DNA of 63,976 nt, filler included, from Basidiobolus ranarum (Eukaryota): NCBI GenBank assembly GCA_040143965.1. It is 3 parts of 3 records of this genome, joined end to end, with 100 filler letters (N's around TTAATTAATTAA, not from the genome) between each part and the next. Parts side by side here need not be neighbours in the genome. Positions count along the whole stretch, not along the records: positions 21,691 to 43,203 come from JASJQH010007078.1; 2 more parts are not named here. One strand, written 5' to 3'. Position 1 is the stretch's first letter. Each line of letters opens with the position of its first letter. Of the stretch, positions 2,047 through 51,622 are shown piece by piece. The notes below the pieces were generated by a model. The model had not been told where the DNA came from. It saw only the letters and a list, made by a program, of their open reading frames with translations, and searched no databases. The position numbers and the translations under genes are program-made.

Positions 2047-3505
2047 ATGCGTTTCTTGCTTGCCTTAGTCGCAGGGTTGTCTACCCTTGAGATTCTAACT
2101 ACCGATGCTGCTCCAGGTCTCTATTCCGATGCTTATGACTACTGCCAAGCTCCCACACCCAGCGGCAAGGAATACAAGCCTATGGTAAGCAAGTTGGTGG
2201 TTGTGTACATTGGATCGATTCTTCTAAACCGTTTTGACCTTTTTTATAGCCTAATGCCAAGCTTGTTCATCTTCAACTTTTAATCCGTCATGGTGATCGT
2301 TCTCCTGTTTATCCCAATCCTAATGAACACGATGTCACCTGGGATTGCGATCAAATACGCGATCATTCTCATATGTATGGTAGCTACAAGGGTGTCAACT
2401 TTGACAGTGGTAATTTTGAGTATGACGTAGTCATTCCTCAAACCAACGCACTCTCCGAGAACTTTTGGAAGGGTTCTTGCGTTAATGGCCAATTGACTGC
2501 CAAGGGAATGCTTCAACACTTAGCGTTGGGTAAATCTCTTCGTGATGTTTACATTAACAAACTGAAGTATCTTCCCCAAAAATTGAAGGATCCCAGATCT
2601 TTCTACATTCGTAGCAGTGATGTCTGGTGAGTTGGCCCTAGTAATTTCATTTCACTTCTCATACTAACTCGATTCCATGATTTAGGCGTACCAAGCAATC
2701 CGTACAGTCCCTACTTACCGGGTTGTACCCCGTCAAAGATAGAGCCAGTAGCAGCAGCCGTTGGACTATCCCCATCGTATTCGAACCTATCGAGATTGAA
2801 ACTCTTCTCTTCAGTAAGGCTAGATGCCCTCGTTATGGTGAGATCTCCAATCAAATGATCAACACCACATACTATCAAAACTACTGGAAGACCGTTACTC
2901 CTTTGAAGAAGCAGCTCGATGAGATTCTTGATACTGGATCCAACCCTGATCGTCAAAACACCATGGTCGGTTATGTCGATTCTATTCGTGCTCGTTCTTG
3001 TCATAACAAGAAGCTTCCTTGCAAGGGAAAGAAGTGTGTTACTGAAGCCATGACTAAGACTTTGTTCAAAGCCATTGATGTGGAGTATACCTACACCCAT
3101 CGTGATGCTAAACTTGCCGATAAGGTAAATGGTGTCCTTATCGGTTGGGTTTTGAAGGATATTAAGGAGCGTATGCAGTTGGCCCTTAAAGAGATCAAGA
3201 GTGCCGCCAAAAATGGCTCAAAGCCCGCCGTACAACCCTTTGAAGTTTTCTCTGGCCATGACGATACCATGACTGGTGTTCTAGGATTACTCCATTCTAA
3301 GGATATGAGATGGCCTCCTTATGCATCCAACTTACTTTTCGAACTCTGGCAGCGTAAGGATAATTCTTATCACCTTCGTATCATTTTCAACGGTAAGGTA
3401 TTGGAGTTGAAGGAAAAATGGTGCAACTTGCATTCTTGCCCCGTAGAGCAATTCTTCAAATACATTGAATCCAAAACTCTCAAGAGAGATGAGTGTAAAT
3501 TATAA
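2047..3505 (+). CDS. Secreted or vacuolar histidine acid phosphatase (His_Phos_2), 3 exons: 2047-2184, 2250-2626, 2686-3505
   Basis: Signal-peptide-like N-terminus. After splicing it has the RHGDRSP catalytic motif, WRTKQS, the SGHD acid motif and PPYASNLLFEL. The GT-AG introns keep frame. Confidence 0.93.
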
Positions 3506-7772: not shown

Positions 7773-10700
7773 TCACTCGGCAATTGTTTCACTGGGACTA
7801 TCCTTGGTACGCTCCTTTTCGTTCACCACAACCTCTGCTATTTTTCTGCTGGGATCTTGTGAAGATTTAATCTCTTTATCCGTAATAGGCTCATCCAAAT
7901 TAACCTCTGAAGGACTGGGTTGATCAATCAGCTCGCCTTCCTCATTGTCTGACGGAGCAGAGCCATGGGATCTAGAGGAATCCGGGTGATCTTTACCAGC
8001 TCGATTTTTGTCCTCTTTGAATTCATTTGGCCTCTCATGGGTTTTGGTAAACCTATCGTAGCGTTCATTTCTCGATCTAACACCAGTGGGATCTTCGCGT
8101 CTCTCATATCTTATGCGATCACGAGGTCTATCTTCACGACGATAAGGCTTGTATTCATCAGGTCTATCTCGACCTCGGTCAAGTTTACGATCATCTCTTC
8201 TATAGTCAAACCTTTCTTTGAATCGCTCAGATCTATCATAGAATCCATAGGGTTTGTCTCCTTTTTCTTTAAGTTTTGCTTCCTTGGGGCCCGCTTTTCT
8301 AAAGTCATCAGTATTGTATTTGAAGTCAGATCCGCGGTATGTGCTTTGAGAAGGTCTGGGACTGGGTCGAGGTTCATTCAATCCCTCATCGTCGTCAATC
8401 TCGCCTTCCTCCATGTCGGAATCACCTTTGGATTTAGGACTTTCAGCTGTGGTATCCTTGACTTCCGATTGCTTCTCCTCATCGCCAGGTAAGCTACTTG
8501 CACCTGGTTCAGAACTCTTTGATTCGCATGGGGATTCCGGTTCGCTCTTGGCGATCTCAGTGACTGGTTCATCTTGACTCTCGTGGTTATTGTTTGAATG
8601 AGGAGAATTTTTTAGTTCATTGGATTCTTTGTGTTCACTAGTAGAGTTACTAGATGATTCGTTTTGATTGTTTGTTAAATCTGACTTCAAAGTGTGAACA
8701 GTATCGATATCCATAGGCTCTGGTGATATTTCACCAGCTTCCAACTCATTGGATAGCTCATTCGATTCATTCACTTCTTCGACTTCAACGCTTGGAGAAT
8801 CTTCTACAGGCTCCACTTTCTCTAGAGGCTCAGATTCCATTTCCGGTACAATTTCGCCTTCAGATAGTGAGGCTATCTCTCCTTCTTCGATTTTACTTGG
8901 TGCTGATTGATCTTCAAGAGAGTTGTCTTTGGATTCAGAAACCGAGTCAACTATAGCTTCAATTTCGGATGGAACAACATCAGTTGATTCGTTCTTTTGC
9001 TCAGTATCTTCGTCATTCTCCTGCTCCGATACTATCATCTGGTCATCATTATCCGTTGGTAATGCAGGTGTGTCAGAAGGCGAGGGTGTTTTTTCACTAC
9101 CATTCACGGGGCTGTTGATTACTTCAGAATGAGTTAGAATCGCGGTATCAGGTTTCAATGAATCAATGGATTGAGGCAAAGGATCTTTGTTTTCTCCAGG
9201 AAGGTCGGGGTTGTTGTCAGATATGTGTTCTGATGTAGCAACCGCCTTGGGCGGCTCTTCAACGGGATTATTTTCAATCTCAACCTTTTCTTCTGATACT
9301 TTATCATCATCTTTTGAATCCTCATTAGTTTCGTTTAACTCACTTTCAATTTCACCATCTTCCACTTCTTGACTCGACTCCTCAGGTTTGTTTTCGTCAG
9401 AGTTAATCGGATCATTCTTTGCTTCAATATCCACTTGTGGAATAGTTTCCGTATCCACCTGAACTTCAATTGGATTGATAATATTAGCTTCGTTTTCAGG
9501 GTTTTCTGCGTTGGTTCCTGTGGCTTCGTCATTCTCTACGACGTCCATGGGCTCCGGTTCGGAAAGAGGTATATCAGGAACCGTACTTTCGACCACTGTA
9601 GTTGGGTTGTCATTCTCCACATTTTTAATGGATTGACTAATCACAATCTCCACATTGTCATGTAACTTACGTTCTTCTGGTTTGACTACAACCTCCATCT
9701 CCGTTGTTTTTGAGTCCGAATTTTCTTCAGAAGGATGTACCAGTTGACTCTCAGGAGCTTCCACCAAATCAGTTTTCACATTTTCAGATTGAACTGAAGT
9801 ATCTTCCTTTTCTTCTGGAATGCTTTCTACTTCCTCTGTTTTAGGGATAGCAGCAACTTCAGCCTCATCGGTGACAGCGGCTGAATCAACCATAACGATA
9901 TCTTCAATTGTGTCCTTGGCAATTGTATCCTCGGCTACATCCACAGCCTGAGGTGAGTTTGGTGTCTCTTTTATTTCAGTGGAGACAGCTACGACTTCAG
10001 TGGTATTGGTAGGCGAGTCAATTTTAGAATCCATTGGAGCAGGCTCAGCTTCAGGTGTATCTTTAGCTTCAATAGTCGGCTCGGATTCATTAGCAGGTTC
10101 AGATTCTTTAGCTTCATCAATTTCTACTTCGGGCTCCGGAGCGGGTATTTCTGGTTGGTGGACAACTGCAGCAGCCTTTGCTTCCAATGCTTCTTTGGCA
10201 AGCTGAATGGCAGCTTTCATGCGTTCAATAATTTCTGGGGTAATCCAGTACATAAAACCAATTGGAATCAATATACCTTCCGGTATCACCTTTCCTTCTA
10301 TCATTTCAATTTGGTGAGGTTCACATTTGGCAGTGATTAATATGCCCTGATCAACCCACACGATATCTGACCATTGTAAACTGATAAAGTCAGTCTCGCT
10401 TGTAGAATCGAATTCATTAGACGATTGGATCCGAAGCTGATATTGTGCAGAAGAACTATTTTCAACGGATTCAGATTTCGGGACTCTTTTGAGTTGATAA
10501 CTATTGAAACCATATTAGATGCGAACATACGTGCTCGAGAAGGGTTCAAATGAGCTTACCTATTCTTGGTATTCTCAAGACATAGTATATCCTGCTCGAA
10601 TCGATTGAGATTCCATACAGAAGCTTCCTCCACATCCTCCTGTTGGAGAGCCAAAATAAGATTGGGGTGATACTTATAGCTATATATGAGAATTACCCAG

Positions 10701-34730: not shown

Positions 34731-37700
34731 ATGGACGTGAATAGAGTATCCGTTACATGTAAGTGACTTCAACTAATTGCTCAACCAATGCATTACTATG
34801 ATGTTAAAGTACCCTGTTTGTTGAACTAATTGACGACTCTTTCCAATACAAAAGACTGTGATCTTTATAATATATGGCCACAAATAAAAGAAGAATTACT
34901 TGCCTACCTGCCTCTAAAATCCCTGAATTGGAAGCCTGGCTCAGATGTTAACCATGTGATCAATACTTTACCAGTAGAATTGGTTGAGTATAATCCCAGT
35001 ACTGCTGGAGCACCAACTAACGTCCCAGTCCGACTTAGTCAAGAACCTTACTTAAATTTATTTTTCGTGAATTGTGATGTGAGTCCCAATAGTAAGCAAG
35101 GTTCTTTTTATATAAACATTAACAACCTTTTTTCTAGGATCTGGAGCAATATCGTCAGAGCGTAAAGAAGCAAATAAAGGATTGGCATTCCGTGGTTTCT
35201 ACCAAAAAAGACCAAGAATGGCTTATTGTTTATGTTGCAAAGCAGGAGCTTGCGCGTAATGTGTTTCTCAACATAAAGGGCACTGTCTACGATAGAATAC
35301 GGGCTGATTTCAACACCAAGAAGGATAGGTAATCTCGTTAAAAATCCTTGACTAACTTTGAGGCCAAATGATTAATACTAGCCTCTATTTTATCAGATGC
35401 TCTATTCTAAGACCTCACGATCACGAGTCCAAGACCGAGCTTTGGCAAGATTTCATCTCCAAAGTTAAGGATGGGATCATTACCAGCTTTGAGTATCATG
35501 TTGCTCAATATGAAGAGCATATTCGAAGAATGGATTCCCAACGTCAAATGCCCGGTTGGAACTATTGTACTTTTTTCCTGATGAAGGTGATATAAACCAT
35601 GTGATTTCCAACACTAGCCATACTAATGGCTTATCGCACAACTCTAGGAAAGTCTTGCACAATCTTACGAAATGATGAATCTGTTTGATCAAGCTTTGAA
35701 ACAATATGACGAGTTAGAAGCGTCCTTCTTCCAAGTGCTGAAAGGTAGTGTGAATTCCTCATTGTAACGCTTACAAATCAACTAAACGTTTTGCCAAATA
35801 GATAAGGCATTGACGTGGTTCAAAAACTTTGGAGGCTTAGATCCTGGGGATGATAGTGCGGATATTCTCGACATCAATCGTAAATCCTATAGAGATGCGA
35901 TCCTACAAAATGATATTTCTGTGTTTGATTTTCGGATTTACCTCTTCGCAAGGCAATGTCGACTTCTCTTTTTGATTGGAGAGCCAACTGAAGTTTGCGA
36001 CCGTGCGTTGAAATTTGTTTCCACTTTTGTCCGAACGATCAGGGATTTCCAGGTGAGACTGCGGTGTTCCTTATGTTACTTTGCTAATGACTAATTATAA
36101 GCGGTATCATATAGAGTAGTTTCAGTACCAACTTTCTTGAAATCTGGACCTATTCATCGTGCATGAATGTTGTGGAAACCTGCGAAAAAGCTCATATTTC
36201 TTCACGACAAGACTCGGGATTTCACTCGCACTATGCCGCTGTTAAAGCTGAATTAGTGAGATGCGCACGTATCCAGGTAATGTTTAGAATCATGGAGGTG
36301 AGTAAGAAGAGCTCACTAACTCGAATGAATACCTCTAGTTAGATAAACTGGGCATTTTTTATGGTTACCTACCTTGTTCTCCACCATTTATTATGTCTTT
36401 GGAGAGCAATGTCCCGGAGCCCCAATATGAAATTGATCGTTCGCAGATGGAACAGCCCAAAGCCATGTATAATGAAGATCTCAAAAATGCCATCAGTGAT
36501 TCTCAAGCTTTCTATAGCCTCTACCTGGTAAAGATCAAGCCTATCATTATGTATTTCTTGGGTTCTCATAACCATTTATCAGGAATTGAGTGACAGAGCA
36601 ATCAAGTATTACGAGCTGAGCGGTCGTACTCGTTATATTTATCAGCTTCAAGGCGATATTGCTTCCTTGCATTTGTGAGTTACTTATACGTGTGTTTATC
36701 GATTCCACCTCCTCTAACATACTGATTTACGACTCTTGAAGCCATAATCAGCAATACGCCGAAGCCGGAGCAATATTGAAGCCTATCTGCGCGAAGTATA
36801 TTGAGACGGGCTGGTTTACGATCGAAAACCACTTAATGACTAAACTTGCTGAATCGCAGAAGCATTTACAACAGCATAGCCAATATCCTTAATGAATATA
36901 CCATGTTTCGAACTTCACTAAAATATCAAAATTATCCTTAACCTCACCTACGTATGCAGAATCCTGTCTCGTTCTCCTCACAACCACAAGATCCCTACTA
37001 AGTGAAGAGCAGATATTGCTGTATTCTCGTGAGTTGATTGAAGTGTCCAGTGTACTTGAGGACGGTTAGTGTTCCTTATCAAGATTTTTTCCAGTTCACT
37101 CAAGCTAAATTTTACAACATTTAGAAATTACTCGGAATTTCGCGCCTATATTTGATGTTTCTGTTCTAAGTAAAAAGGACACGCCTACAGAGTTAGCCAT
37201 TGAGATGCTTGTCAACAATTCTCTTCCTATGGTTAGTTTGTTTTACTCTCTCTAGCTATCTTTTCCTGCATTAAAGATCTTTTTATTTCTCAAGGAATTT
37301 ACTGCTTCTAAGCTTAGCTTAAAGCTTGCTGGGGATATTACCAATGAAATTGAATTCTACTGTGAAGATCAGCTGCTTAAACCTGGCATGAACACATGTC
37401 GATTGATATGCGAGGTAATAAGTTGCTTCAAGTTGATCTATTAATATGACAACCCTGTTGATATACTCTGTATTACACTTCAGACTTCTGCACCTGGAAA
37501 TTACGTTCTTGACAATATTCGCATGAATGTCGGAAAATTGGTGTTTACCCATTACTTGCTCAAAGAGACTAAGAAAAGAACCTTCCGAATCAACGAGCAT
37601 CCTTCCACTATCAAAATCCATGCATCCTTACCCAAGATTGGTAATGTCTCAAGTTGAAAATTCACCAGGGATGTTCTCACTAATAATCCCGTATTTGTAT

Positions 37701-39791
37701 TACAGTGCACATTGGAGAACAAGATACAATTCTTATTCAGCTTTTGACTCGCCAAGATTCCATCGAAAGTGGAGTGATTCGGGTGAAGAGTTTAACCGAT
37801 TTATTAACTTTAAAGCCATGTGACAGCGTCAGCAGTAAAGTATTATTGAACCAAGAAAGTAAGCCATTTAGATTGCCTGTATGTCACCATTGAAGCCCTT
37901 TTTTGTTAACCTTTAGTTTCAATTCCATGTGTCAGCATTCCTTGAGCCGATCACTCATGATGAAGAAAATTCAATCACTTTGGAACGTGAAGGAGAGGAT
38001 TACAAGCTCCCTTCTCTACAAGAGCAATCTTTGCTCAGATTTGCAGTACCCTGTGAAGAGTTCAATACAAACCATGGAAAGGTTGGCATTTCAGATTACA
38101 GACGGTTCAATGAATCTTCCAAGGAGTATTCTTACCTTTTTCTTGCATCGGATAGATTGGAGTTGTTGTTGAATATACGACTAAAAAGGGGCAAAATCGT
38201 ACCTTCTCTACAACGCAAGAAATTGACCTAGCCATTCCTTTATCTTGGTCCCATAAAGCCTATTTCCAAGAGAATTGGTAGAACATATAGATTAAATCTA
38301 TAACAAGCTTCATTCACTGAACCATCGTAGCCTTTTCTTCAAAGTCAATTTAGAATGCCATTCCTCAACACCGCTTCGAATTCATAGTGCTAACCTCGAT
38401 CCCCCATCAGAGTTTGAAATTGCCCAGCATACAAACCTGAATTGTTCAGAAACGGTAACTTAGCTCTCCCAAATCCATCACTTAAGAAACGAGAATTAAC
38501 CGGCTTGAAATACTTAGCTTTTATTCCCTCAACAAGAAATGTCCATACTCTACAAACTCAAGAAAGGGATAGGTTTGTCGTTAATTAAATCTACATCATC
38601 TTCGTCTCCTCTATTAACCATTCTATGATGTAGATTATGATTCACGAAAAACCAAACACGAATTTAACTTCCAGTTAACTTACTCAACGTTACAGGATGG
38701 TAAGTGAACAATATCGATTCATTGAGGAATCAGTTTGTTAACTCAATTTATCTTGGTAGAGATCGAATCGAATATCATCAACAAACTTCATGACCTTCTT
38801 GAGAAGGAGCAATTGAACCAGCATTTCTCATTCATAACTCCATACATCAAGCAACATATCAAGGAGAACGTGGATATCTTCAATTACGGGATGACCAACG
38901 TATTAGCTCTTGGTCCATTTGATATGGCCTCTCTAGAAAGGATGTTGATACACGATGAGGAAACTACTGCCAAGACTTTACTAGATATCATGACGCGATT
39001 CTTTGAAGTAAGCAAACTCCATTGATCAATCGCCTCCTTTACTCCAATTTCTCACTTGAATTCATTGAACTCTAGACTTACCAAAACGTTGATATGGAGG
39101 ACATGGAGTTTGATCCCAGTCCCTACCAACAAATACTGAATATTCCCATTAGTATACCCGTATGTGAGGTTGGTTAAATGATATGTTGAATCCAATGTCA
39201 ATAGGATATATGATTCTAATCTATGCATATTAGCTTTTATGTCTGGTGGAACTTCAACGTCTTTCAGAAGAATTCGTTAATATTGGAACTCCATGTCCTT
39301 TCAAGTTGCTTATAAAATTAGCGGATTATTGGAAGCCACGTAATGTGAAGATGCCAATTGAATTACAATATGACATTGGTATTGATGGAGAACAATGGTT
39401 ACTTTCTGGGAAGAAACGAGGTCATTTTAAGTTAGAGGTAAATTACCGGATAGAAGATAATTTCCATTATAGTTTGAACCGTGTTCGAAATTTAAGACTT
39501 TATTTATAGGCTGGTAAAACGGAAGAGATTCCTTTTATGCTTGTTCCGTTAAAGACAGGATTTCTTCCATATCCTACGATGTTTATTATCGCTAATGAAC
39601 TTGAACGAGTTGAATGTTGTTATATTAATGGTGGTAAACAATTGTTTGTCGTTCCTAAAGAAAATACAACTACTATCTTTTTGGAGAATCCTCGACCTAT
39701 TATTAATCATATGTGGAGAAGGGATTCGGTGGAAGCTGATCCTTCCGTTTATGGTTCTGAATCGGACTCTCCATCAGATCTCTCGGATTGA
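34731..39791 (+). CDS. TRS130: TRAPPII subunit Trs130/TRAPPC10, more than 20 exons including one AT-AC U12-type intron
   Basis: LPLKSLNWK, PYLNLFFVNCD, RQMPGWNYCTFFLMKESLA, ISVFDFRIYLFARQ, WLLSGKKRGHF and LVPLKTGFLPYP are TRAPPC10 motifs. Confidence 0.92.
36883..36951 (+). other. U12-type (minor spliceosome) AT-AC intron in TRS130
   Basis: 5' site ATATCCTT, branch site TCCTTAAC (36935-36942) and 3' AC. Removing it gives HS-Q-YAESCLVLL; retaining it gives an in-frame TAA. Confidence 0.92.
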
Positions 39792-45279: not shown

Positions 45280-45954
45280 TGTATTGGCAGAGAGGTTGTA
45301 ACAACTCCAGACTGATCAGAATAATTATCCATTTTGCTGACCATCGATTTTTTCTCTTATTGGTGGGTAGTGTAGGCATGGGTTCAATGATAAAGCTATC
45401 CCATCACACAAGCACATTAGACTGTATATTTACATATTAATATTCTGGATTTAACACTGTATCATACGAAATTCAACCTGGAAAGCAATACAACGTTGAC
45501 GGGGCCAATTTGAAGTAGGTATTGAAGGCTACTGTCGTTTAATTGTGAAATGGCCCAATGAAAAGTATAATAACTACCAAAAACGGAACTTTTTGAGGGT
45601 TAAAAAACCTCATTATTGGCATAGGCCAAGTTACCATTGAGAGTTATATATGATCTCCGAATCTCTTGCCAAAGCTCCAATACATGTGATTTCTGAAACC
45701 TCCTTTTTTTGAGGAACTTCACCAATGATACCATTATAGCTAAACAAGCTTCTTTTAATATGGGACGACGCTATCCATCGAACAAACGATTTTTCCATTA
45801 ATATATATTCGACTACTCCTACCTACTTTCCACTAGTGATCGTTGTTCGGGATCATCTTCGAACCAGATGTGCATCCTCCTTTACTGGTTACGAACACTG
45901 TATACTAAGTTTTTATCTTGCGTAGTATTAAACCCTTTCTCCATCGACTTTAAC

Positions 45955-46359
45955 ATGTCAACTTTAATTAGTATTACGAGTTTACTATTTGCTCCATTAT
46001 CTTTACTTCTTTATATTTATCAAAGTTCCCAACCCTCAGACTTTGAAGAAGACGACTTCTTTGATATGTACCTCACGGGAAATCCCCAATCTGGGTACAA
46101 CTCCTTGGTAGAGTCTGATATACCAGGCTGCATATCTTTAGCAGAAGAAATGATAAAACGTTTACCTTTGATTTCAGATAGAGAATGCGCGAAAACAAAA
46201 TGTGCGATTTGCCATGAGGAATTCGAAAATAAGCAAACCGACTATCAAATGAGACGAATGCCTTGTGGTCATGCATTTCATCAAGATTGTTTATTACCTT
46301 GGTTGCAACGAGTCAATAGTTGCCCACTATGTCGGCGTAAAATTAATGTTGATATTTGA
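45955..46359 (+). CDS. Intronless RING-H2 E3 ubiquitin ligase with an N-terminal hydrophobic segment (alternative start at 45868)
   Basis: CAICHEEF...MPCGHAFHQDCLLPWLQRVNSCPLCR. Confidence 0.88.
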   Translation: MSTLISITSLLFAPLSLLLYIYQSSQPSDFEEDDFFDMYLTGNPQSGYNSLVESDIPGCISLAEEMIKRLPLISDRECAKTKCAICHEEFENKQTDYQMRRMPCGHAFHQDCLLPWLQRVNSCPLCRRKINVDI

Positions 46360-47327
46360 CTTGTAGGCTTAATGGTTGCTTCGTTTGTTGTATCACAATG
46401 TTTCAAAAAATGGACAGGGATTTTTTATGACATAAAGCTGAGTACTATATCATATATGTTGCTATTACGTTGAAATCGAATGTAAACACCTGGTCTTTGT
46501 ATATAACAGAGTATCTAGTCGACTCTTGTAAATTTTAATAAATTCAATATACTGTCTTAGAACATCACTTGTTCACTAGTAGCGACAGAGATGATTTAGT
46601 GTGATTGTCTTCGATGAATTCTAGCGATCAAGCCCAAAGTAGTACATAGCAAGAGCAACTGACACAAGTTCTTTCTAGTAGCGTTGGGTCACACACGCAT
46701 GTATGGATGAGATCTTTTCGAAAGAAAGCTCCCAAACACCAGTTGATTTGAAAATGAACTACGACGAGTACCGTTGATAAATATGCAAAGATCAGTTGTG
46801 CCCAAATTGTCTAGAAAGATATACGGGGTAGTCCGAGTCTGGGCTTCCTAGAATAATATTACTCGGACATTACGGCTTTCCCTAGATTAGATACAACAGG
46901 TTTTGATAATCCACACCATGAATTGTGTATCAATTTAGCTTTTATGCCAATCTAATTGTGGAAAGCTATACACCGAAAGGACACTAGGGTATAGTAACAA
47001 TTGGGTAGATTTGTAAAGAAGTGGTTTTCATTAATAGAACACTCAGAAATGATTTCTTTAGGGCCTTGTTAAAGCCCAGGTACCATGTTTCTCCCTAAAT
47101 ATACAACCGCACAATGCTCCGACACATCCCGATAGATCATTTGGCCCAGATCCTCAATACTGTAAGTAATCTAAAACTCACATTCACTATGGTATTATTG
47201 TTTCATAGATTTCGACCTGGTGCTGTACACCACCTACTGGGCCAACAAATAGACCGAACAGCAGGTGATATATAAGCGAGTCACTCTTAGGATACTCTCC
47301 TCATTTTTACATTAGCCCATCCCAACA

Positions 47328-47810
47328 ATGCCAGTACTGAGCGCTTCGTTTGCATTTTCTTTAATTGGCGCATTCTTACCAATTTCCATCTATTTGCTGA
47401 GTGATCAAGAAGCAAGCGATTCCTCTGATGACGATGCAGCCACATTTGACGTTATGCTAGACTCATTTTTCATCGGAGTACCACATCCAACACGACACCA
47501 AACGCAAGATCGTACCAATGGATTCATACCCGCCTCGCAAGAAGCCATGAATGATCTGCGTACAGTACCGTTGGCTGAAAACTCAAAACATGCCTGCTGT
47601 ATATGTCTGGAGACATTATATTCTTGTACGTCAGCTAAACCAGCCAAGGAGATGCCCTGTAGACATTTGTTCCATCAAGAATGCATATTCTCTTGGCTGT
47701 CGGTATCCAATACCTGTCCGCTCTGCCGATATGGGATTGACACTGACAATAAAGATTACAACGAGTCTCTCCATCAAAGGATGGTCAAAGATCCTCGGAA
47801 CTCAGCTTAG
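47328..47810 (+). CDS. Intronless RING-H2 E3 ligase (RNF181/RNF126-like) with an N-terminal hydrophobic segment
   Basis: PASQEAMNDL, then CCICLETL...MPCRHLFHQECIFSWLSVSNTCPLCRYGIDTD; TATATAA about 55 nt upstream. Confidence 0.9.
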   Translation: MPVLSASFAFSLIGAFLPISIYLLSDQEASDSSDDDAATFDVMLDSFFIGVPHPTRHQTQDRTNGFIPASQEAMNDLRTVPLAENSKHACCICLETLYSCTSAKPAKEMPCRHLFHQECIFSWLSVSNTCPLCRYGIDTDNKDYNESLHQRMVKDPRNSA

Positions 47811-48406
47811 GAGGCCACCAACATTAAGATCCAGGAAGTGTCAAATCTGGATGAATGCGAGTCCTTGATCCCCCATATTACAATGTAAATCATATAGATT
47901 CATTTCAATGCCTCCTTTCTTTTCAACCCAGAAATTCTCTTAAATATGCCATCGAAATCATCATATTATATATATACATTTACAATCCTCACAATCGAAT
48001 CAATTTCTCTCCCTCTAATGAATAAATCTCTGTATTTTCTTAATTTGCTGTAAACCAAACAGACCCTTACACATGACTTCAGCTTGTCCAGCGGGCTACC
48101 TAGAATTTGGCCGAAATGAAAGGGCTTTATGGTAGAAAACTGCCCTCGACAAAGCTCGGTGGAGTTGCAGAGAGCAATCGGGTGGCTGATGCAATGCAGT
48201 GTCAATCTGGTAGCCCATCATAAGATGGCCATTGGCGTTTAATCAGTAGGTGATAATGCTATTAGGATTTCAGTGAATTTAGGATAAGGGCTTAGGATAT
48301 TTATGATTTGAAGATAGATTATGTACATGCAAATACTACATTGGGGGCTTAACATACAAATCGAAGGATTGAAAATGTGGCATTACTAAGTGAGGGAGAA
48401 ACCGTT

Positions 48407-48790
48407 CTACTCAAGACTTCTTTCTAGTTCATATCTACAAAGTGGACATGCACTAACTATGTCAAGCCACGAAAATAGACATTTTTGGTGAAACATGTGC
48501 TGACAGGGCATTTCGCGAACCACGCAATTGTGATGGTTTAAGTTCTCAAGGCATATGGCACATATATCATCGCCGTCATGACGCACGATGGCGAGATTGT
48601 CTTTGGCTGCAGACGTTAATGTATTGCTTCTTATGGGTGAGCAAAGCCATGGCGGCATATCTATCTCCATATTATCGAAGTTGATGTCGAATAGGTAATC
48701 CCCAGTGAACTGAAGGATGCTTGTGAGCAAAGAGAGCATTTTGGTAAAGCTTGTGGGTAATGTGTAGGGATGCTGAGTGGTGGGATCCAT
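48407..48790 (-). CDS. Intronless RING-H2 E3 ligase, third paralog
   Basis: CAICLENL...MPCQHMFHQKCLFSWLDIVSACPLCRYEL. Confidence 0.88.
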   Translation of the reverse strand: MDPTTQHPYTLPTSFTKMLSLLTSILQFTGDYLFDINFDNMEIDMPPWLCSPIRSNTLTSAAKDNLAIVRHDGDDICAICLENLNHHNCVVREMPCQHMFHQKCLFSWLDIVSACPLCRYELERSLE

Positions 48791-51622
48791 TTTAAATGAG
48801 GTTCAGTAAGAGATCGAACTAACAAGCTTTTATAACCTATTCGCAGCGCTGATAAATAGCCCTCATGTCATCAGACTCTACAATGGCCCATTTTAGTTTA
48901 ACTTCCATCCACATCTATAGTCCTAGAATGCGACTAATAAGGTGGACATGCATAGCAATATCAGCTCTGGTAAAGCCACCCAGCTCTCTGGCTGAGGATT
49001 TCATTTGACAATTCGTGATATAGATTGAATTTTTCGTCAGAGTAAACTGGGTCATTCCTGATATTGAAGGTAGAACGAAACCAATTACCAACATGGGAAG
49101 TTTGTCTCAAACCATGCTGAAGACTATTTTGGCCATCATTCAAATTAACCTTATACTTCCAATAGTCTAACTGCAGCACGTGTCAACATGACGTGACAAA
49201 GAAGCCCTATCTACTCGGGAGGCAGTTATTAGAAGCAAGTGCTTACTGTCCTACGACCTCTGATATTCTGTTGGGCAATTTCCATGCTCTGTTGATTTTG
49301 CTCATGACACCTCAGGGGCTCCTAGCTTCATGGATTTGCTGTTGGATGTTTGACTCATCCAGATGGTCGCCGCCCCCTGTCAAATGGGATCATTACTGAT
49401 CGTTCTCGAACACCAGAGAGGAAATACAGCCATTTATAGAAACATACTTGCTAATTGTTACTATATAATCTCCGCAGATGTAGTTAATTTTGAGTTAAGC
49501 AGCTGATCTCTGTACTGCTTAATTGCCGTGGATAATGGTTGGGTTAGCAATCCAGCAGTAGGGTCATGGTTAAGCATGGCTATGGAAGGTTGGCGTCAGC
49601 TGGTTGAAGTTCTAGATCTAATGCGTATGAATCTTTTGTTGTCTTCAAAACATAGAAGAAGACTTCTTTGCGTGATACGCTCCTGTCTACCCGTGATATT
49701 CTCCTAGGGTTATGTCGGATTTCCAAGCCGGGACAGACTTCGATGGTCATTTCGTGTAGAACGATTCGCTCAAATGATTAGATCCTAGCAACTTTAATTC
49801 CTGATTAAGAGCCATTGAAGGCATCCGCTCTTTCGATTCAACTCCCTATTACCAATTTTAATAAGCCTGCATGTGATTTTCAACATCATAGAATCTATGA
49901 TAGAAAATGGCATCGGCCTCATAAGTGGTGGGTGTCGCATTATTTGATCTATAAGTGTTTACGAATGAGCCGCCATACTCGTAGTGATCCTTCATTTGGT
50001 TGGATTTCTACTGCATGATCAGTGTTGTTGATATCTCCTAGTTATAATTGGTCTGCGGCACGCCAGGGCTTTTGAAAAGTCATATTCCCAGTGGTTCTCT
50101 ATAGTGGCTTTCGATAGTATCACCATTACCCTGATCGCCAGTAGCTCTTACTGGGAATGTCCGAAAAAGGGACTCCAACTGGTTTGGTTGGAAATCGATG
50201 AATTCAGTTAGTGGTATCGTGATGAGGGTATCTAAATTAGTACTGATTATAGTATGCCACACTTGGCTATCATATATTACAAACAGGCGTCACTTGACAC
50301 AATCTCCACTTAATAAGGCCCCGCCATTCAACCATTCTCGGACATGACATTAAGAGACAAAAGTGAGGGCAATATCCCACGCTAGAATGCACTCCATATC
50401 ATGACTTGGCATCCCAAGTATATGTTGTGGTGGAGAGCAAAGTCTGGACAAACCATATCTGCTACTGCTCTTGAAACACCGCATTCTAGTCGCTAATTAA
50501 TGCAACTATTTCAGAAATAGATGAGAAACTAGATCACCTAGAATCCAACGGAGTAAATATATTTAAAGCGTACTGTTACATATGGGGAGCTACTAGGAAA
50601 CTAATCCTTTCTACTGTCAGATTCAACAAATTTAGCTTATGATGATTGAAGCATGTGTCATTTGATAATGGTATGCCATATCTGAATAAATTTAGCGAGA
50701 ACTAGTAGGTAGCAAAGAGATTGGTTGAATTCCTCTTACCAAGCGTAGATTATTCCTAACAAAGCTAAAACCAGAACCATTAACCAACTCTAATTTAGAT
50801 CATGAGAGATGACTCGAAAGCCATGCAGCATATGTAAGTCTGGATACCTTTCAAGATATAGATTATTAATTTTTTAATATATACCATCACAATCAGAACT
50901 TGTCTCTCTTACTAGGAGTCTAGCGAGTGTATTTGCAGTAGGCATCTGATTGGATTTGTCTAGAACCAATGTTGCTTAAACACATGTGTATTCGTCTGCC
51001 TACCTGGATGATACGGAGTCTTTGAACTTTTGATGAGAAAGTATGCACATAGTGGAGTTGATAGAAATCAATGGTTACAGTGTTTCAGTAGGCGTTGTGG
51101 TAGGATATTCAAAGTGAAGTTGAGATTTGCACTTTCTCTAATAGTTGTAATACATGTCAAGCCAATGTTCAGCATAGTGTATGAGTATTTGGGCTCTAAA
51201 CTGTAGTGCTACAATTTGTGGGTACATTCCAAGATCTACTAATAATGAAATTTTGATTGCGGTTAACTCGCTAACAAACTTTTGGCATTTATATATAGTA
51301 GTAACATTGTTTGAAAGGCAACAACACACGTAGAGAGCTTGCCTCAATGGTACTACAAATATGGATACTATCGTTGAAGCACTATAGCTGAGTACCAAGT
51401 ATAACGCCTACCTTTGGAAAATGCAGCTCAATGAAATACGTGACAATCTTCATTAGCAATCAGCAGCTATTGATAATATAACTAATCTTGAAATGAAGTA
51501 TTAAATACTTGTTTCTAAATGGGGATATTGTGATACGAGTGCTGAGTGCTGTAGTGACACTTTATCAGTTACTGACAATCCAGGCACTGCTGGTTGTCAA
51601 AGTAATTATGGAATGGTATATA

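Follow-up and report, generated by a model that had tools for sequence, protein, structure and literature searches.

TRAPPC10/Trs130 gene of Basidiobolus ranarum

The window analysed here (the whole stretch of 63,976 nucleotides of Basidiobolus ranarum DNA, assembly GCA_040143965.1) carries on its plus strand the coding region of TRAPPC10/Trs130, the layout of which is given in Table 1. The exon model, drawn up manually on the sequence and verified by script, yielded a CDS of 3546 nt without internal stop. Of its 23 introns, which measure 53–96 nt, 22 are of the GT-AG type, leaving intron 10 as the sole AT-AC intron, with a length (69 nt) in the size range of its GT-AG neighbours. Most 3′ tails of the 22 GT-AG introns contain CTAAY-like (A/T-rich) branch motifs, as judged by eye and without counting.

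The assignment of this gene to TRS130/TRAPPC10 is correct. The Pfam family PF23036 (TRAPPC10 N-terminal) matched four exons with 34.7–69.9 bits (cut-off 27) over profile positions 14–316, while PF12584 (TRAPPC10 C-terminal; cut-off 22.5) scored 34.3 bits in one exon and a sub-threshold 18.5 bits in another. Exon 6 was 100% identical to the deposited B. ranarum protein K7432_005264 (GenBank, 1184 aa; P0001) and 96% identical to a protein of B. meristosporus CBS 931.73. A phmmer comparison of K7432_005264 with the PDB retrieved the yeast Trs130 chains 7e2c_I, 7u05_B and 7e8s_I of TRAPPII structures (E 2e-20 to 2e-18). The hand-built model and K7432_005264 differ solely at intron 22 (39160–39233), for which the former uses the donor GTATGT at 39160 and the latter a GT located 9 nt further on, at 39169, thereby including an extra VCE. 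The presence of VYE at this place in B. meristosporus supports the deposited version.

Table 1. Features of the TRAPPC10/Trs130 locus around intron 10 (positions along the window)
Feature	Position	Strand	Basis
TRAPPC10/Trs130 coding region, 24 exons, 23 introns, about 1181–1184 aa	34731..39791	+	stop-free exon model, Pfam, K7432_005264 (P0001), yeast Trs130
Intron 9, GT-AG, upstream of exon 10	36675..36741	+	exon model
Exon 10, ending ...CATAGCCA, codon split after CA, phase 2	36742..36882	+	sequence, exon model
Intron 10, putative U12-type AT-AC, 69 nt, phase 2	36883..36951	+	motifs, hand-built exon model, spliced product equal to P0001 and P0026
5′ splice site ATATCCTT	36883..36890	+	8/8 to U12-type consensus RTATCCTT
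In-frame TAA (36890–36892) and TGA (36893–36895)	36890..36895	+	end the frame on intron retention
Branch-point motif TCCTTAAC	36935..36942	+	8/8 to TCCTTRAC
3′ terminal AC	36950..36951	+	10 nt after second A of branch motif
Exon 11, starting G TAT GCA GAA TCC TGT CTC; completes Q, then YAESCL	36952..37064	+	sequence, exon model

Motifs and reading frame of intron 10

The plus strand reads ...CATAGCCA / ATATCCTTAATGA ... TTATCCTTAACCTCACCTAC / GTATGCAGAATCC..., in which the slashes follow positions 36882 and 36951. Between the branch motif TCCTTAAC and the terminal AC lie the seven bases CTCACCT, which places the end of the motif 9 nt from the last intron base. Taking the second A of the motif (A36941) as the branch point, the distance to C36951 amounts to 10 nt. 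In U12-type introns, the distance from branch point to 3′ end is about 8–21 nt.

Without splicing, the frame of exon 10 continues as CAA TAT CCT TAA TGA and meets two consecutive stops, the ORF at 36740..36892 terminating at the TAA of intron 10. Joining 36882 to 36952, on the other hand, completes the split codon to CAG (Q) and continues with YAESCL, giving the peptide ...QQHSQ/YAESCL.... The exon end, intron start, branch motif and terminal AC were all read from the sequence at the positions that an earlier note on this DNA had claimed for them. The splice product (Q-YAESCL) and the immediate stop of the unspliced frame (TAA) proposed in that note were recovered as well, and its core reading, a fungal TRS130/TRAPPC10 gene interrupted by a U12-type AT-AC intron, is borne out by the motifs together with the matches to PF23036, PF12584 and yeast Trs130. 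Judging from the sequence, we are therefore highly confident that 36883–36951 is a bona fide U12-dependent AT-AC intron, being intron 10 of B. ranarum TRAPPC10/Trs130.

Taken singly, neither consensus is unusual in the window. RTATCCTT was found five times on both strands against 6.3 matches expected (at least five in 75 of 100 shuffles), and TCCTTRAC six times against 4.3 expected, a number that 23 of 100 shuffles reached. In contrast, ATATCCTT followed 30–60 nt on by TCCTTRAC occurred only once in the window, at intron 10, and in none of 100 dinucleotide-preserving shuffles. What chance cannot explain is that the two motifs are paired at this spacing and at the end of an exon, in a place where two stops have to be spliced out.

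A relaxed motif scan of both strands of the window returned 17 motif pairs, of which only one other was attractive. This candidate for a second U12 intron (3306..3149, minus strand, 158 nt) starts with ATATCCTT and has TCCTTAAT 13 nt before an AC, but was rejected as a chance look-alike because it runs antisense within a plus-strand histidine-phosphatase coding exon (PF00328, 2681–3502). The occurrences of GTATCCTT at 8452 and 56023 were also set aside, each being located opposite a long minus-strand ORF.

Alternative junctions and the spliceosome involved

The spliced product was identical across the junction to K7432_005264, which is itself a prediction. The B. meristosporus model 341931 (P0026) reads QQYSQYAESCL at the same place, and a protein of the chytrid Phlyctochytrium arcticum (P0003) aligned there without gaps (TTQYLEVCL). 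Two metagenomic relatives were likewise continuous through the junction column, with ...NKYAQACL... in locus L034 and ...TGFVLCCL... in locus L049. Excision of intron 10 consequently restores both the frame and a conserved protein, ungapped with respect to these four homologs.

As terminal dinucleotides alone are known not to settle spliceosome type, intron 10 might also be removed by the major (U2-type) spliceosome, like a small class of AT-AC introns with which it has its termini in common. However, U2-type AT-AC introns lack a U12-type donor and branch site, both of which are present in intron 10. Its donor is ATATCCTT and not a major-type AT/AAGT-like site, and its branch region is a perfect TCCTTAAC at 10 nt from the 3′ end, whereas the CTAAY-like motifs mentioned above (seen by eye, uncounted) mark most GT-AG intron tails of the same gene. 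Moreover, its last 30 nt are A-rich and without pyrimidine tract. Intron 10 thus departs from the U2-type AT-AC introns in donor and branch site, both of U12 consensus, as well as in the missing pyrimidine tract, and we regard its removal by the major spliceosome as very unlikely.

Use of a conventional junction close by was weighed as an alternative by enumerating all GT-AG, GC-AG and AT-AC pairs in 36760–37050 that keep the frame and are free of stops. Among the resulting 69 junctions (3 GT-AG, 27 GC-AG and 39 AT-AC), only 36883–36951 has both a U12 donor and, at working distance, a branch motif. No plausible GT-AG alternative was present among these junctions, as the three GT-AG options span 189–207 nt, have weak donors and would each entail the loss of at least 40 residues. 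The best conventional candidate was a GC-AG pair at 36879–36959 (81 nt, turning SQYAE into K), which keeps the frame, removes both stops and ends on a CAG (36957–36959) resembling a normal acceptor. Nevertheless, its donor GCCAATAT is far from the GC-AG donor consensus and its use would drop four residues, among them Y/F and E/A positions retained by model 341931, the chytrid protein and the two metagenomic loci, making a conventional junction even less probable than removal by the major spliceosome. Least credible of all is the explanation that does without an intron and takes the stops as real (through pseudogenisation or an error in the assembly) and the motif match as a coincidence. The 24-exon gene is otherwise intact and contains no stop, both flanks of 36883–36951 are conserved in register with the homologs, and coincidence is contradicted by the motif pair being absent from all 100 shuffles.

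Predicted excision of intron 10

If intron 10 is U12-dependent, established knowledge of minor splicing predicts that the U11/U12 di-snRNP would pair jointly with donor (ATATCCTT) and branch site (TCCTTAAC), after which U4atac/U6atac.U5 would take the place of U11 and the intron would be excised through the two transesterifications known from the major pathway. Upon retention, a stop would be met at around residue 524 of 1184, three codons into the intron, and the product would be truncated or NMD-targeted. U12-dependent excision would in turn make the full-length TRAPPII subunit, and hence an essential trafficking gene, dependent on the minor spliceosome.

An Rfam scan of the 64-kb window yielded no matches, and its ORFs comprised no minor-spliceosome protein, the other genes being ordinary housekeeping genes. 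A working U12 spliceosome in B. ranarum is suggested by the data published for B. meristosporus, and intron 10 might serve as a motif-perfect marker that B. ranarum, like B. meristosporus, uses the minor spliceosome.

Gene models at the junction

The earlier note had also expected standard gene callers to mis-model this junction, which proved to be so for one of three public models only. Both the record of this genome (K7432_005264) and B. meristosporus model 341931 have the junction right. The other B. meristosporus model, K493DRAFT_301887 (P0002), lacks the stretch corresponding to residues 472–559 of K7432_005264 and has some 20 unrelated residues instead. This gap covers the end of exon 9 together with exons 10 and 11 (36583–37064 in the window), around the AT-AC intron, and is an example of how annotation can go wrong at an intron of this kind, to the point that both flanking exons are dropped. 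The same model error may cause published intron-orthology tables to miss intron 10.

Several further insertions relative to K7432_005264 were seen in model 301887, and the model is apparently wrong at more than one intron. The C-terminal halves of models 341931 and 301887, encoded on contigs of 52.8 kb and 134 kb, respectively, are apparently identical, and the pair may represent a recent duplicate, a haplotig or a partial TRAPPC10 copy.

Minor introns described in Basidiobolus and other fungi

According to the accessible parts of two recent surveys, in which this early-diverging fungal genus is placed in the Zoopagomycota (PMC10639083, PMC11347168), B. meristosporus is rich in minor introns. 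The first survey reports 249 of them (0.554% of introns), a density above that of any other fungus reported (Larue & Roy 2023, PMC10639083). The second counts 237, and describes U11, U12 and U6atac genes together with a putative, divergent U4atac (Olthof et al. 2024, PMC11347168). For the Zoopagomycota as a whole the reconstructed ancestral minor-intron density is low, even though that of Basidiobolus is the highest in fungi, and no minor introns were found in Dikarya (PMC10639083, accessible part). The catalogued minor introns of B. meristosporus agree with intron 10 in genus, intron class and consensus motifs, and its model 341931 encodes the same junction peptide as the B. ranarum site. Outside the genus, Rhizophagus irregularis (Glomeromycota) offers a parallel in the accessible text of PMC10639083, as it is also an early-diverging fungus with canonical U12 motifs (n=205 minor introns) and with all four minor snRNAs reported, although it belongs to a different phylum than Basidiobolus.

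We did not find B. ranarum named in the accessible parts of PMC10639083 or PMC11347168, nor Basidiobolus gene ids in the available supplements of the latter, and a full-text literature search on TRAPPC10 with minor intron or U12 retrieved nothing naming intron 10 of a fungal TRAPPC10. Nevertheless, minor splicing in Basidiobolus and TRAPPC10 as a mammalian minor-intron gene are both already in print. Intron 10 is a further member of a well-documented class, and an ordinary example of it since the genus has already been published as the most minor-intron-rich among fungi.

The minor intron of human and mouse TRAPPC10

In the accessible part of Table S6 of Olthof et al. (2024, PMC11347168), a minor intron is listed for human TRAPPC10 (ENST00000291574, chr21:44079705-44080014) as well as for mouse Trappc10 (chr10:78207547-78207891), so that these members of the same gene family as the B. 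ranarum gene each have a minor intron. The same source lists the human intron as responsive in MOPD1 fibroblast and MDS data sets and in U12, U4atac and U6atac morpholino data sets. In its Table S8 on the orthology of human minor introns, TRAPPC10 occupies column 179 and the B. meristosporus row reads ‘protein_ortholog’, denoting a reciprocal-best-hit ortholog without orthologous intron, where an orthologous intron is defined by a match of at least 40% over 20 flanking residues (PMC11347168). A row for Rhizophagus was not found in the accessible part of this table. The best hit behind the B. meristosporus entry was probably the longer model 301887, and since this model is without the exons flanking intron 10, the entry may be uninformative.

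Coordinates given in the accessible part of Rawlins et al. (2022, PMC8963566) for human TRAPPC10 exon 18 (c.2786 = g.44089849) and exon 22 (c.3392 = g.44102823) place the human minor intron ahead of exon 18 at a distance of 9.8 kb, which does not fix its codon. Literature searches under TRAPPC10 or TMEM1/AT-AC yielded no placement of the human minor intron, the TMEM1 matches being unrelated TMEM genes.

Intron 10 site in other lineages

Of 60 metagenomic TRAPPC10 loci that were fetched, 17 were listed around residue 522 and one more (L051) was inspected, with the other 42 left out. A single alignment ran through residue 522 without intron in eight of the 17 loci (L002, L004, L010, L034, L044, L046, L049 and L053), while the remaining nine had no alignment covering this residue; L051 was continuous through the intron 10 site as well. 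By appearance, most of the read-through loci are Dikarya-like, for which the absence of intron 10 is expected because the minor spliceosome was lost in Dikarya. The intron was, however, also absent from the chytrid-like contig of L049 and from L034, the closest metagenomic relative (64% in the best segment), the latter having intron positions in common with B. ranarum near residues 381–385, 595 and 635–637. A regular-expression search for U12 motifs in all 60 loci gave seven matches, none of which lay within the TRAPPC10 match on the coding strand.

In three Dikarya-like loci (L031, L036 and L046), an intron-like insert with an in-frame stop was observed at the column of intron 9. From these inserts, the GT-AG position of intron 9 seems to be widely shared, whereas the neighbouring U12 position is not.

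The pattern of absence fits either repeated loss of intron 10 or its gain on the Basidiobolus branch. That this U12 intron arose within the Basidiobolus lineage and is not ancestral is a possibility that we regard as rather doubtful. [quoted passage not shown] Equally, intron 10 could occupy the site of the human TRAPPC10 minor intron, in which case it would date back to the opisthokont ancestor and have been retained since. Whether intron 10 is homologous to the human minor intron or a lineage-specific gain is the question of wider interest at this locus, as a gain would mean that animals and Basidiobolus acquired minor introns in TRAPPC10 independently and would provide a concrete case of minor-intron gain, an otherwise very rare event.

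Other features of the window

On the minus strand, positions 7776–10514 hold an uninterrupted ORF of 913 aa without Pfam match at E 1e-4, a length that stands out in a gene-dense, intron-rich region. What looks like a small local gene family occupies 45802–48802, where 3 kb contain three separate RING-H2 zinc-finger ORFs (PF13639), of which one is on the minus strand and the other two are on the plus strand.
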